Part shown: positions 1,475 to 24,139 of the stretch, in pieces
Numbering within the stretch: the first letter of the stretch is position 1
Layout: the number at the start of each line of letters is the position of its first letter
IMG/VR virus record: IMGVR_UViG_2734482777_000019
Direction: 5' to 3' (one strand)
DNA from: a virus
Taxonomy: Duplodnaviria > Heunggongvirae > Uroviricota > Caudoviricetes
DNA: 40,224 nucleotides
Notes under the pieces: generated by a model
Told to the model about the DNA's origin: nothing
What the model saw: the letters and a program-made list of their open reading frames with translations, nothing else
Database searches by the model: none
Translations under genes and position numbers: made by a program

Positions 1475-3316
1475 ATGACAGTTACAACAAAGTTCAGAAA
1501 TGACATTAATGGCCTAAGAGCTATAGCTGTTATAAGTGTTGTTTTGTTTCATTTTTCATCTTCTATAATTCCAGGCGGATTTATTGGTGTAGACGTGTTT
1601 TTCGTCATATCTGGATACTTGATGACATCAATTATATTCAGAGGGATAGAATCTAATTCTTTTTCGGTTATTGACTTCCTGAAAGCAAGGGCGAGACGTA
1701 TAGTTCCTGCTCTCGTTGCAGTTGTATTCCTTACACTGATTATTGGTTATATGTTCTTTGAGCCTATGACATTACAGATCATAGGAAAACATTCTGCGGC
1801 AAGTCTAACATTTATTTCCAATATTATTTATCAGTCTGAATCAGGTTATTTTGATGATACATCAAAGCAAAAATTTTTACTGCATACATGGTCGCTATCA
1901 GTTGAATGGCAATTCTATATAATTTACCCGATAGTGTTACTTGCACTGTCAAAGATATTTTCAATAAAAAATCTTAAAATATTTGTTGTTGCGATTGCTG
2001 TTGTTTCTTTTGCATGGTGCATTTACATAACCAGAACTGATCCCGTGTCATCATACTTCAGCATCGCATCAAGAGGTTGGGAAATGATGCTGGGAGGCAT
2101 TGCTTTTCTGTTCCCGTTTAAAGGTAGCGATAAATCAAGACGAGTTTTGGAATCAGCAGGGCTAATATTGATCGCGCTGTCTCTCGCGTTCATGAGCGAA
2201 AGCTTGGCGTGGCCTGGCTACATTGCGTTTATTCCAGTATTCGGGGCCTATATCTGCATTCTTGCTGACAATAAAAGAACCATTCTTTCTGGTAAGATCA
2301 TTGAAAAGCTTGGGCTCTGGTCCTATTCAATATACTTGATCCACTGGCCGGTAATCGTCTTTTGCGAGAAGACGGGAATTGAGTTAAATATTTTCTGGTA
2401 TCTGGCTGGTGTAGTGTCAGCCTCAGCACTACTTTATAGCCTTGTAGAGAAGCGTCGTGGTTATGGATGGGGATTGCTTTTCTGTTATTGTGTATGTCTC
2501 GCAGCCGCTTTGTATGTCAATGTCGACGGGGTAAGTAGTCGCATTAAGAATCCTGATTACCATCTTAATAAAGACCTGTTCCGCCGGGCTTACGAAGGAC
2601 ATTTATGGATGCAGCCTGGAGAGAATGTAGACTACTTCAACGCTACAGAAAAAGACTTTGACTACATCATACTTGGTGACAGCCATGCAAGACACTATTT
2701 CGCTTTCTTCAAACAAAGCGGTCTTAAAGTAGCATCGCTAGCTGCGGATGGTTGTAAAGTTACAAAGCATTTTATGGGGCCGCTAAACTATTCTGAAAAA
2801 CTCAGAAAGATTTGCGAAGGAAGATATAAGAAGGCCGTTGAATTCATTAATGCCCATCCTGGCAAGAAAGTCGTATGGTTGCAAGCGTGGTATACTGGAA
2901 AGGTTGGAAACCCGCTAACGACTGACAATTCTTATAAAAATGATTTCATCAGTGAAATGAAATATTTTCTTGATGATATTAAAGGCTCTAACAGCCAGAT
3001 ATATATTGTTGGTGATACCCAGGGAAGCAAGGAAATCATGTATCAATGCCTGGCATCACAAGACCTTCCTATTAATAAATTATTCAGAAAATGCAATGAG
3101 TTTCAGGATTATATAGAGCCTGCAATGAATAGCAGATTTAAAATATTTGCTGAGCAATATCAAAAAGTTCATTTCGTTGACCCTAGCCCAGCAATATGCA
3201 GTGATGGCAAATGTAGAGTGGTTGATGGAGATATGCCTGTTTACACGGATAACTCTCATCTTACAAAGGTATGGTCAGTTAAGGTTGGTGAATATATCTT
3301 TAGCAAGATAAAGTAG
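1475..3316 (+). CDS. Membrane acyltransferase (acyltransferase-3 family with C-terminal SGNH-like domain), O-antigen acetyltransferase-like moron
   Basis: 613-aa ORF with hydrophobic multi-TM N-terminal two-thirds and soluble C-terminal domain; AT-rich relative to flanks; preceded by AT-rich intergenic region; lies between int and tailspike where P22-like phages carry serotype-conversion genes. Confidence 0.8.
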   Translation: MTVTTKFRNDINGLRAIAVISVVLFHFSSSIIPGGFIGVDVFFVISGYLMTSIIFRGIESNSFSVIDFLKARARRIVPALVAVVFLTLIIGYMFFEPMTLQIIGKHSAASLTFISNIIYQSESGYFDDTSKQKFLLHTWSLSVEWQFYIIYPIVLLALSKIFSIKNLKIFVVAIAVVSFAWCIYITRTDPVSSYFSIASRGWEMMLGGIAFLFPFKGSDKSRRVLESAGLILIALSLAFMSESLAWPGYIAFIPVFGAYICILADNKRTILSGKIIEKLGLWSYSIYLIHWPVIVFCEKTGIELNIFWYLAGVVSASALLYSLVEKRRGYGWGLLFCYCVCLAAALYVNVDGVSSRIKNPDYHLNKDLFRRAYEGHLWMQPGENVDYFNATEKDFDYIILGDSHARHYFAFFKQSGLKVASLAADGCKVTKHFMGPLNYSEKLRKICEGRYKKAVEFINAHPGKKVVWLQAWYTGKVGNPLTTDNSYKNDFISEMKYFLDDIKGSNSQIYIVGDTQGSKEIMYQCLASQDLPINKLFRKCNEFQDYIEPAMNSRFKIFAEQYQKVHFVDPSPAICSDGKCRVVDGDMPVYTDNSHLTKVWSVKVGEYIFSKIK

Positions 3317-6206: not shown

Positions 6207-6274
6207 GTCAATATTTCCTAATCCGATTTGTTGATGCCGAAGCCCTGACTGTTACAGCAGTTGGGGCTTCAACT

Positions 6275-21911: not shown

Positions 21912-22379
21912 TCATTTCAGGCACTGCGTGTTGATGTATTCCTGCAGCGCTCTCAGTGATGTTTGGTCGCTGATGATTCCGGATCTGATACTGAGAACGT
22001 TTCGTCCAGCAACTGGAGAGAGTTCGACGGTGGCATCATTGCCCATGCCGGAGGTGCGGGAGGTTTCGGTTGAGGCTGGCACTTGACACTTTCCTTTGAC
22101 GAGCACCCTGCCACCATTATCAAGCTTGCGCCGAAGAGCATCATTTTCAGCTTTCGCATCAGCTAACTCCTTCGTGTATTTTGCATCGAGCGCAGCAACA
22201 TCACGCTGACGCTGCTGCATGTCAGAGATGGTGGCGGTCGCCTGCTTCAGCTCACTGACTTTTTTATCGCGCTGCTCTTTGTAGGCGATTGCGTTATCAC
22301 GGTAATGATTAACAGCCCATGACAGACAGACGATGATGCAGATAACCAGAGCGGAGATAATCGCGGTTACTCTGCTCAT
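21912..22379 (-). CDS. Rz: Rz inner-membrane spanin (i-spanin)
   Basis: 155 aa, N-terminus [31 protein letters not shown]... is near-identical to lambda Rz. Confidence 0.95.
21953..22159 (-). CDS. Rz1: Rz1 outer-membrane lipoprotein spanin (o-spanin), embedded in Rz in the +1 frame
   Basis: [19 protein letters not shown] lipobox and Pro-rich body as in lambda Rz1; fully nested in Rz. Confidence 0.85.
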
Positions 22380-22852
22380 ACCTCAATCTCTCTGACCGTT
22401 CCGCCAGCTTCTTTGAATTTTGCAATCAGGTTGTCAGCCTTATGCTCGAACTGACCATAACCAGCGCCCGGCAGTGAAGCCCAGATATTGCTGCAACGGT
22501 CGATTGCCTGACGAATATCACCGCGATCAATCATCGGTAAAGCGCCACGCTCTTTAATCTGCTGCAATGCCACAGCGTCCTGGCTTTTCGGAGAGAAATC
22601 TTTCAGGCCAAGCTGCTTACGGTAGGCATCCCACCAACGGGAAAGAAGCTGGTAACGTCCGGCTGCTGTTGATTTGAGTTTGGGGTTTAGCATGACAAGT
22701 TTGCGAGGGTGATCGGAGTAATCAGTGAATAGCTCTCCGCCTACAATGACGTCATAACCATGATTTCTGGTTTTCTGTCGTCCGTTATCAGTTCCCTCTG
22801 ACCACGCCAGCATATCGAGGAACGCCTTACGTTGATTATTGATTTCCACCAT
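22376..22852 (-). CDS. R: Endolysin R (lytic transglycosylase)
   Basis: 158 aa, essentially identical to lambda R ([51 protein letters not shown]...). Confidence 0.97.
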
Positions 22853-23159
22853 CTTCTACTCCGGCTTTTTTAGCAGCGAAGCGTTTGATAAGCGAACCAA
22901 TCGAGTCAGTACCGATGTAGCCGATAAACACGCTCGTTATATAAGCGAGATTGCTACTTAGTCCGGCGAAGTCGAGAAGGTCACGAATGAACCAGGCGAT
23001 AATGGCGCACATCGTTGCGTCGATTACTGTTTTTGTAAACGCACCGCCATTATATCTGCCGCGAAGGTACGCCATTGCAAACGCAAGGATTGCCCCGATG
23101 CCTTGTTCCTTTGCCGCGAGAATGGCGGCTAACAGGTCATGTTTTTCTGGCATCTTCAT
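22836..23159 (-). CDS. S: Holin S (dual-start holin/antiholin)
   Basis: 107 aa, essentially identical to lambda S107 including the MKM dual start. Confidence 0.97.
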
Positions 23160-23275
23160 GTCTTACCCCCAATAAGGGGATTTGCTCTATTTAATTAGGA
23201 ATAAGGTCGATTACTGATAGAACAAATCCAGGCTACTGTGTTTAGTAATCAGATTTGTTCGTGACCGATATGCAC

Positions 23276-23315
23276 GGGCAAAACGGCAGGAGGTTGTTAG
23301 CGCAACCTCTTGCCG
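23276..23315 (-). terminator. Late terminator tR' (lambda-type), target of Q antitermination
   Basis: Minus-strand sequence ...ggcggcaagaggttg-cgctaa-caacctcctgccgttttgccc matches the 3' end of lambda 6S RNA/tR'. Confidence 0.75.
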
Positions 23316-23401
23316 CCCGCTTTCACGAAAGTCATGTGTAGAAGGCCGCAGCGTAACTATCACTGATGAATTCAGGATAGCCAGTGGCTACGGCTCAGTT
23401 A

Positions 23402-23477
23402 TGGTGCTGGTTAACGGACTTGAACCGCTACCCATTCGCTTACAAGGCGACTGCTCTACCATTGGAGCTAAACCAGC
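23402..23477 (-). tRNA. tRNA-Thr (anticodon UGU)
   Basis: 76-nt cloverleaf GCTGGTT..GCTC/GAGC D-arm, anticodon loop CTTGTAA, T-arm GGTTCAAGTCC, acceptor AACCAGC, discriminator A, encoded CCA; one mismatch at the base of the anticodon stem. Confidence 0.7.
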
Positions 23478-23482
23478 ATATT

Positions 23483-23557
23483 TGGCGGGACAGCGTGGAC
23501 TCGAACCACGATAAGAAGGTTAACAGCCTTCCGTAATGACCTTTATACGACTGACCC
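23483..23557 (-). tRNA. tRNA-Asn (anticodon GUU)
   Basis: 75-nt cloverleaf: acceptor GGGTCAG/CTGTCCC (1 mismatch), anticodon stem GAAGG/CCTTC, loop CTGTTAA, T-arm CGTGG-TTCGAGT-CCACG, encoded CCA; loop and T-arm match E. coli tRNA-Asn. Confidence 0.75.
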
Positions 23558-23620
23558 AAATAAAAAAAGCCACCGTTGCAACTTAAGAGTCACTAACGGC
23601 AGCTTACCCTCTAATTATGG

Positions 23621-24139
23621 CTAAATGGCTAATTGCATGTCAAGGTTTTTAACAGCAACATGCTTAACTTTCTCAACACGTTTACGCATTTTGAAAGCAT
23701 TTTGCATTGGTTGGTACAAAACAAATAATGACGCTTTCAGGATGTCGTCAATTTCGTTTCTACAGGTTGCCAGTGAAGGTTTTCTCCATCCCTCGCCACC
23801 ACGTCCACACATCTTGCGTGGCTTTGCAGTCGCGTGATAGTAGGATGCAATTGCTCGCTTAGATGAACCATGAGCGTAGTAGCTGAGGAGGATGCCAAAG
23901 GCTTTTTTGTCAATGTACATGACGGAATCGACGACCTGAGAAATCAACATTCCATCATCATCATTGCACATTGGCCTTGTCATAACTCTTCCCGGCTCTA
24001 CGCTCTCCATGAACTTCGCTATTACGCTGCTCATGCGCTTTTCCAGACGACCTGAATAAACCCATGCGCCCCACAGTTCAAGCCAGCCATTCAGCCACTC
24101 GTGCTGCTCTTTGGTGAGGTTTAGTTCTCTTATGCCCAC
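23621..24139 (-). CDS. Q: Late-gene antiterminator Q (non-lambda type)
   Basis: 172-aa ORF at the canonical position between ninI and the pR'/tR'/lysis region; Cys-containing; assignment mainly by synteny. Confidence 0.75.

Follow-up and report, generated by a model that had tools for sequence, protein, structure and literature searches.

Two tRNA genes separate the late antiterminator gene Q from the lysis genes in the phage genome analysed here, and their position raises two linked questions: whether they are working genes, and whether they are transcribed in the lysogen or only once the late operon is read. The genome is IMG/VR record IMGVR_UViG_2734482777_000019, a stretch of 40,224 nucleotides from a member of the Caudoviricetes (hereafter the window, numbered from its first letter). 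Its source is a P22-like phage, as shown by a sar RNA, a gene for an antirepressor and a coat gene of the P22 type; the virion genes of this phage are approximately 95% identical to those of CUS-3 over the matching 59% of positions 1-25000. The late strand is the minus strand, which carries Q, S, R and Rz and then the terminase, portal and P22-type coat genes. The elements of the locus, listed in the direction of late transcription, are the following.

23621-24139, minus strand: Q antiterminator gene of the phage 21 type, 172 amino acids (Pfam Phage_antitermQ, PF06530, 1e-25)
23614-23643, minus strand: late promoter pR' (promoter scan; aligns with the annotated pR' of Sf6, HK75 and phage 21)
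23600-23607, minus strand: probable transcription start (~23607) and sigma-dependent pause element TAAGCTG (23606-23600), placed by alignment to the phage 21 annotation
23562-23605, minus strand: intrinsic terminator tR' of the phage 21 type (17-bp interrupted stem and a U7 tract at 23568-23562)
23483-23557, minus strand: tRNA-Asn, anticodon GUU, 75 nt (ARAGORN; Rfam 55.3 bits)
23402-23477, minus strand: tRNA-Thr, anticodon UGU, 76 nt (ARAGORN; Rfam 61.5 bits)
22132-23400, minus strand: lambda-like block that takes in the sequence upstream of S, the S and R genes and the 5' portion of Rz together with Rz1 (alignment to lambda)
23345-23394, minus strand: long conserved hairpin, the first element of the lambda-like block (RNA fold of -27.7 kcal/mol, z -4.9)
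23280-23314, minus strand: terminator-like hairpin (12-bp stem at 23314-23285 with one A.C mismatch, then GUUUU)
22836-23159, minus strand: S gene (Pfam holin S)
22376-22852, minus strand: R gene
21912-22379, minus strand: Rz gene (Pfam Rz)

A first-pass annotation of this DNA had recognized the tRNA-Asn and tRNA-Thr genes, arranged head-to-tail on the late strand between Q and S, and ARAGORN agrees: it accepts both genes, 5 nt apart, and finds exactly these two in the whole 40-kb window, both on the minus strand. Their Rfam scores against RF00005 also exceed the gathering score of 29, with E-values over the whole window of 2e-9 for tRNA-Asn and 4e-11 for tRNA-Thr. Both are genuine, canonical bacterial-type tRNA genes. 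The cloverleaf is the minimum free-energy fold of each, with a single U4.U69 mismatch in tRNA-Asn; the anticodons start at position 34 (ARAGORN) within loops of 7 nt (CUGUUAA in tRNA-Asn and CUUGUAA in tRNA-Thr), the T-loops read UUCGAGU and UUCAAGU, respectively, and the 3' CCA is encoded in the two genes alike. Identity elements for the E. coli enzymes are G34, U35, U36 and G73 for AsnRS and G1-C72, C2-G71, G35 and U36 for ThrRS. All of these are found in the respective phage sequence, including G73 of tRNA-Asn and both acceptor-stem pairs of tRNA-Thr, and it is on account of these known elements that charging by the host AsnRS and ThrRS is proposed. Recent capture of the genes from the host was considered and rejected, as only 48 of 78 aligned columns are identical between the phage tRNA-Asn and E. 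coli asnT and 55 of 78 between the phage tRNA-Thr and thrU.

The timing of expression turns on the order of promoter, terminator and tRNAs. The Q protein of the window is 86% identical to that of phage 21 over 162 residues and matches the Q21 structures (PDB codes 6JNX/6P18) with an E-value of 1e-92. The stop codon of Q is overlapped by pR', in which 11 of the 12 consensus positions are matched (-35 TTGACA at 23643-23638, an 18-nt spacer and -10 CATAAT at 23619-23614). The spacer contains direct repeats resembling a Q-binding element (QBE), ATTAGCCA (23633-23626) and TTTAGCCA (23625-23618), which differ from the ATTGAGCA/AATGAGCA of phage 21 and to which the window Q would be expected to bind. 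Downstream, tR' folds with an energy of -20.2 kcal/mol (z -5.4; none of 200 shuffled sequences was as stable). It is 100% identical to the phage 21 terminator, which its record credits to Guo, Kainz and Roberts 1991 (PMID 1704887), and is annotated likewise in the Sf6 and HK75 records. In the phage 21 record (OL657228) the -35, QBE, -10, transcription start, sigma-dependent pause element (SDPE) and terminator are all annotated from experiments (PMIDs 1704887, 31455742 and 31663818), and from the pause element through tR' to the start of the tRNAs the window is the same base for base. The pR'-tR' leader thus extends from approximately 23607 to approximately 23562, a length of only ~45 nt, and the tRNAs lie outside it, with tRNA-Asn (23557) beginning 5 nt past the end of the U-tract (23562).

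This order is not the one proposed in the first-pass annotation, in which the tRNAs occupied a constitutively transcribed pR'-tR' leader and would be made in lysogens without Q, serving prophage genes such as an acyltransferase moron. Some features would suit such an arrangement: pR' is near-consensus and late promoters of its type stay permanently on in the lysogenic state (PMC7547250), and two terminator-like hairpins lie past the tRNAs, such that leakage through tR' could yield the tRNAs and stop before S. Nevertheless, pR', the pause element and an experimentally defined 21-type tR', with the same sequence as in phage 21, all precede tRNA-Asn, which runs counter both to the placement in the leader and to constitutive expression in the absence of Q. 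A promoter scan of the late strand between Q and S returned no second promoter besides pR', and the 5 nt between the U-tract and tRNA-Asn leave no room for a promoter belonging to the tRNAs, so that terminator leak is the only route by which they could be expressed without Q. As the first genes after tR', the tRNAs should depend on Q, and this layout suggests that they do so in vivo; we consider expression from a constitutive leader improbable.

The first-pass annotation had also assigned a lambda-identical tR' to positions 23276-23325, on the far side of the tRNAs. The feature present there is the hairpin at 23314-23280, which corresponds to lambda ~45031-45065, approximately 120 nt upstream of S, and differs from lambda by three mismatches in 41 nt (from GGCGGC to TTTTGCC, as counted in the alignment). 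In lambda itself, pR' is at ~44552-44580 and the 6S terminator at ~44725-44781 (CCCGAAAC...GTTTCGGGATTTTTTAT, also given as CCCGAAAC...GTTTCGGGATTTTTT); a search of the window for the latter, with up to three mismatches allowed, gave no match, and the label of lambda tR' was accordingly rejected for the 23314-23280 hairpin. This absence of the 6S terminator, together with the true identity of the hairpin, is a further argument against a leader that encloses the tRNAs.

The mosaic junction claimed in the same annotation is, in contrast, real. Window positions 23400-22132 align with lambda 44945-46213 without gaps and with 95.9% identity, whereas Q and the tRNAs have no counterpart in lambda; since the likeness begins 2 nt past tRNA-Thr, the junction is located at the tRNA 3' end. 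The first element of the block, the hairpin at 23394-23345, begins 8 nt past tRNA-Thr and is found in lambda, HK75, CUS-3, HK446 and phage 21, in the last of which it is followed by a T7 run. The hairpin at 23314-23280 folds with an energy of -28.8 kcal/mol (z -3.2), and was passed over by the terminator scan because only four U residues follow its stem. The two hairpins are common to lambda, HK75, CUS-3, HK446 and Sf6 and might serve as reserve terminators, stopping polymerase that lacks the Q modification. The lambda names t'R2/t'R3 may apply to them, an assignment that we do not assert here.

The close packing of these elements invites another interpretation, namely that the tRNA folds serve mainly as cleavage signals for RNase P and RNase E, with decoding secondary, so that the short pR' leader is detached and the 5' end of the late mRNA is set just before the 23394-23345 hairpin. 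The 5-nt distance from the U-tract to tRNA-Asn and the very stable, conserved hairpin 8 nt past tRNA-Thr would fit this arrangement, and in Stx phages a short pR' leader can work as an sRNA (PMC7547250). However, the same lysis cassette occurs without intact tRNAs in lambda, HK75 and CUS-3, and the retention of anticodons, identity elements and CCA exceeds what a cleavage signal needs. We therefore regard a role confined to RNA punctuation as very improbable.

The two genes behave as an exchangeable unit, bounded by the T-run of the terminator on one side and AACTGAGCCGTAGCC on the other. Both flanks of the 1.4-kb region of the window are shared by 17 phage records, five of which are full-length matches with the cassette while the rest carry other inserts, and 47 phage records have the cassette with a 21-type left flank. 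Among complete E. coli genomes the cassette is present in 369 of 5426 (259 records at at least 99% identity), and the E. coli genome matches listed bear tRNA-Thr and tRNA-Asn annotations. In HK75 and CUS-3, Q, pR', tR' and the S-upstream block are the same as in the window, with some 200-290 nt of other sequence and no tRNA between tR' and that block. ARAGORN reports no tRNA in the equivalent slot of lambda, HK75 or CUS-3, and an Rfam search at permissive E-values yields no tRNA-like match within the spacer of lambda. At the same permissive E-values the HK75 slot gives a borderline tRNA match of 29.3 bits in which a 74-nt insertion replaces the anticodon arm; a weak tmRNA match in this slot was set aside, being explained by the same remnant of a T-arm and acceptor stem. 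Since CUS-3, HK75 and lambda have no tRNA in the slot, the cassette is dispensable, and its absence from close relatives implies that any benefit is accessory.

The closest known arrangements are those of Shigella phage Sf6 and phage 21. Sf6 (AF547987/NC_005344) is 98.6% identical to the window across the Q-tRNA-S region, with only point differences, and its record shows the same layout of promoter, qut site, tR', tRNA-Asn, tRNA-Thr and lambda-like S/R/Rz; it also shares a P22-like virion module, although the virion genes of the window are closer to those of CUS-3. Phage 21 has the same order of Q21, pR', QBE, SDPE, tR', tRNA-Asn and tRNA-Thr, and the segment from the SDPE through tR' and both tRNAs is identical save for one base in the 5-nt spacer between the tRNAs. 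Phage 21 differs in its QBE repeats and -10 region and in the diverged C-terminal half of Q, from which it follows that the Q specificity of the window is probably other than that of phage 21; a like argument has been made for phage L (PMC8022706). Beyond the tRNAs, the S21 pinholin and SAR endolysin genes follow in phage 21, and S, R and Rz of the lambda type in the window. Judged by its sequence, the cassette of the window is the already known late-operon cassette of phage 21 and Sf6, which is mentioned in several reports (PMC8022706, PMC2629481, PMC3636060 and PMC9119081), and neither its sequence nor its placement departs from AF547987 and OL657228.

In coliphage HK446 (JQ086372) an identical Asn-Thr cassette, unannotated in the record, follows the T-run of tR' and precedes the same S-upstream block, but Q, pR', the 6S leader and tR' are of the lambda type. 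With HK446 included, a position of the cassette directly behind tR' is the rule for two Q systems that are unrelated to each other. Stx phages such as 933W carry other isoacceptors, Ile and Arg, for rare codons. Their tRNA genes are found in this same position, between tR' and stx2AB and ahead of the lysis genes, but appear to be driven by a separate promoter between tR' and stx (PMC7547250). In SfI and phage L/ST64T, too, the late operon opens downstream of Q with a tRNA-Asn(GUU), which may or may not be accompanied by a second tRNA. In phage L the second gene differs, being annotated as tRNA-Leu(UAA), and ARAGORN makes no call for it; the phage L report leaves the mode of expression between excision from the late mRNA and transcription from a promoter of its own (PMC8022706). 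A tandem tRNA-Asn(GUU)-tRNA-Thr(UGU) pair in the same order, 2 nt apart, is found in phage P1, where the context is unrelated (the ban operon region). The P1 tRNA-Thr is identical to that of the window at 63 of 78 positions and the tRNA-Asn at only 45 of 78, the latter indicating a different lineage.

The variability of the slot could also mean that the tRNAs are neutral passengers or decaying relics, carried by recombination at a mosaic hotspot and with no current function. The interrupted tRNA-like element of HK75, the second gene of phage L that ARAGORN misses and the U4.U69 mismatch of tRNA-Asn are all of a kind expected from decay. The sequences themselves point the other way. tRNA-Asn is 100% identical in phage 21, Sf6 and phage L, and tRNA-Thr in phage 21 and Sf6; both are kept at 100% in the window, phage 21, Sf6 and HK446 despite diverged pR'/QBE sequences and differing flanks. 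The tRNA-Asn homologue of Klebsiella phage 2b (65 of 75 positions identical, with the U4.U69 mismatch kept) shows three compensatory stem changes, in which pair 6:67 passes from A-U to G-C, pair 7:66 from G-C to A-U and one anticodon-stem pair from A-U to C-G, and no stem-breaking change, a count that comes from a single divergent homologue. The abundance of well conserved copies in E. coli genomes adds to the case against decay, and of the explanations weighed here a functionless relic seems to us the least credible. Both it and a pure RNA-processing role are unlikely because the features needed for decoding have been conserved.

If the tRNAs do decode, their use should be visible in the codons of the phage. 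In E. coli K-12, ACA is read by the product of thrU, the only tRNA-Thr(UGU) gene known in that strain. In a comparison of 49 phage ORFs with 42 E. coli K-12 CDS from one 50-kb region, ACA accounts for 31% of Thr codons in the phage (16.3 per 1000 codons) versus 10% in the host sample (5.4 per 1000; Fisher p 9e-22), an approximately threefold over-use. ACA is the third most enriched codon of the late genes, and its frequency in the non-late genes is 15.1 per 1000, so that the bias is genome-wide and not specific to late genes; its cause may be no more than the lower GC content of the phage (46.8% versus 52%). Asn residues are about 1.3-fold more frequent (48-51 versus 38 per 1000), but AAC makes up 52% of Asn codons in the phage compared with 63% in the host sample, and a preference for this codon is unsupported overall. 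Locally, AAC is used for 16 of 19 Asn codons in the coat gene and eight of nine in the scaffold gene. The suggestion in the first-pass annotation that the tRNAs supply favoured codons is hence borne out for ACA and not for AAC. This codon-supply argument has already been published for tRNAs of the SfI and phage L type (PMC3636060, PMC8022706): the ACA result matches the SfI analysis, in which the values were 17.3 and 7.1 and the role of tRNA-Asn was left unclear (PMC3636060), and the use of AAC in the coat gene has been remarked on for phage L (PMC8022706).

The same codon counts bear on the acyltransferase moron. In its AT3-SGNH ORF, ACA makes up 12 of the 21 Thr codons, as might be expected if the tRNAs served it, but the density of 19.6 per 1000 only slightly exceeds the 16.3 per 1000 found in the phage otherwise. 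Moreover, the moron lies on the opposite strand and would be active in the lysogen, a state in which the tRNAs should hardly be made, and the proposal that they serve it is not upheld.

A further explanation looks to host defences rather than codons and holds that the cassette replaces host tRNA-Asn and tRNA-Thr that have been depleted or cleaved by toxins or defence systems late in infection. There are precedents in phage tRNAs that rescue from retron Eco7 PtuAB (tRNA-Tyr) and from PrrC (tRNA-Lys), and strong expression of an ordinary tRNA can suffice (PMC11555353). The presence or absence of the cassette is polymorphic among otherwise near-identical phages, as expected of accessory anti-defence cargo, and the pairing of Asn with Thr(UGU) recurs in the unrelated phage P1. 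Were this explanation correct, the position behind tR' would bring a surge of replacement tRNAs at the very moment that Q acts, late translation would be rescued in hosts that lose tRNA-Asn or tRNA-Thr to toxins or defence systems, and the patchy presence of the cassette and its recurrence in P1 would mirror the defence repertoire of the hosts. However, the reports consulted on this point name no defence system that targets tRNA-Asn or tRNA-Thr(UGU); the anticodon loops of phage and host are the same for Asn and for Thr, with none of the escape mutations seen in anti-defence tRNAs; and the ACA bias offers a simpler explanation. A counter-defence role thus has, in our estimation, a small chance of being correct.

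Taken together, the evidence makes it likely that the cassette consists of two functional phage tRNAs that form the first unit of the late operon after tR' and add decoding capacity late in infection. According to this preferred reading, pR' would fire constitutively and, with Q absent, polymerase would halt at the U7 tract (23568-23562), 5 nt short of tRNA-Asn, releasing only the ~45-nt leader. A Q21-type protein loading at the QBE and pause site would allow polymerase to pass tR', and a single read-through transcript would then span tRNA-Asn, tRNA-Thr, the lambda-like hairpins ahead of S, and both the lysis and the virion genes. The tRNAs could be excised by host RNase P and 3' processing enzymes, with the CCA already encoded, and charged by the host AsnRS and ThrRS. 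Capacity for decoding ACA (and ACG) and AAY would thereby be raised during late protein synthesis; the chief benefit would presumably concern ACA, which is rare in E. coli, while extra capacity for Asn appears less clearly needed.

The NCBI pipeline calls this cassette routinely in hundreds of E. coli prophages, and the present analysis has little significance beyond correct annotation; the expression mode and contribution of the cassette tRNAs constitute a modest question. The useful correction is a regulatory one. Located past tR', the tRNAs are late genes that presumably require Q and not products of a constitutive leader, and for this reason a service to lysogenic-conversion genes should not be assumed.

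Further features of the window are an immunity module, a probable moron and two elements ahead of the lysis genes, located as follows.

1475-3316, plus strand: AT3 acyltransferase-SGNH fusion of 613 residues
5328-6206, minus strand: P22-type antirepressor gene, with Bro-N and P22_AR_C domains
6208-6274, plus strand: sar antisense RNA (Rfam, 65.6 bits)
23345-23394, minus strand: very stable hairpin, beginning 8 nt past tRNA-Thr
23618-23633, minus strand: direct repeats ATTAGCCA/TTTAGCCA, resembling a Q-binding element (QBE)

The sar RNA gene adjoins the antirepressor gene, so that the immI region of this phage is P22-like. The AT3-SGNH gene, which has a GC content of 38.8% compared with 46.8% across the window and lies on the strand opposite to the late genes, is probably an O-antigen acetyltransferase gene, the acyltransferase moron named in the first-pass annotation.

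The QBE-like repeats differ from their phage 21 counterparts (ATTGAGCA/AATGAGCA), and the divergence between the Q proteins of the two phages is concentrated after residue 94. Both features would fit a Q protein whose specificity is not that of Q21, as has likewise been proposed for phage L.

A tRNA-Asn(GUU)-tRNA-Thr(UGU) cassette identical to that of the window is found in HK446 (JQ086372; positions 1211-1366 of our extract) and in HF4s (MT833387), unannotated in both GenBank records. The related elements in other phages, with positions referring to the extracts compared, are as follows.

P1 (AF234173), 1425-1578: tandem tRNA-Asn-GUU and tRNA-Thr-UGU, 2 nt apart
HK75 (HM173637), 2168-2294: tRNA-like element matching the Rfam tRNA model, in the same slot as the window tRNAs
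Phage L (MW013502), 1423-1494: annotated tRNA-Leu(TAA), beside tRNA-Asn
Lambda, 1060-1145 (genome 44859-44944): tRNA-sized bracketed stretch of 86 nt in the tR'-S spacer

P1 shares the isoacceptors and their order, Asn-GUU then Thr-UGU, with the window; its tRNA-Thr is identical at 63/78 positions, whereas its tRNA-Asn (45/78) belongs to another lineage. The pairing is recurrent among unrelated temperate coliphages. The acceptor stem of the window tRNA-Asn (23483-23557, minus strand) contains a U4.U69 mismatch, which is kept in the Klebsiella phage 2b homologue despite an identity of only 65/75; since the stem differences between the two are solely compensatory, the mismatch may be a selected feature.

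The hairpin downstream of tRNA-Thr (-27.7 kcal/mol, z -4.9) is conserved in lambda, HK75, CUS-3, HK446 and phage 21, in the last of which (extract positions ~1800-1870) a T7 run follows and gives it the appearance of a second intrinsic terminator.

The phage L tRNA-Leu(TAA) is not called by ARAGORN and can be aligned to the window tRNA-Thr with 4 nt missing and an anticodon arm that differs throughout; it may be a pseudo-tRNA. The HK75 element has good acceptor stem, D-arm and T-arm, with a 74-nt insertion replacing the anticodon arm; it scores 29.3 bits against a gathering score of 29, and ARAGORN makes no tRNA call. CUS-3 shares the acceptor-like bracket (TGTGGTG...CGCCACA ACCCA), with a longer insert inside it. 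The lambda stretch lies between the strands of a 7-bp helix without mismatches (TGTGCTG...CAGCACA), after which comes ACCCA, and this helix covaries with that of HK75 and CUS-3 (C-G to G-C). Neither Rfam nor ARAGORN gives a tRNA match for it, and its middle strand could alternatively pair with GCACAACAGG, directly 3' of tR'; the stretch is perhaps the fossil of a tRNA, or else an element that adopts alternative structures. The elements in HK75 and CUS-3 suggest that tRNA genes have long been resident in this slot and that some have since decayed or been interrupted.
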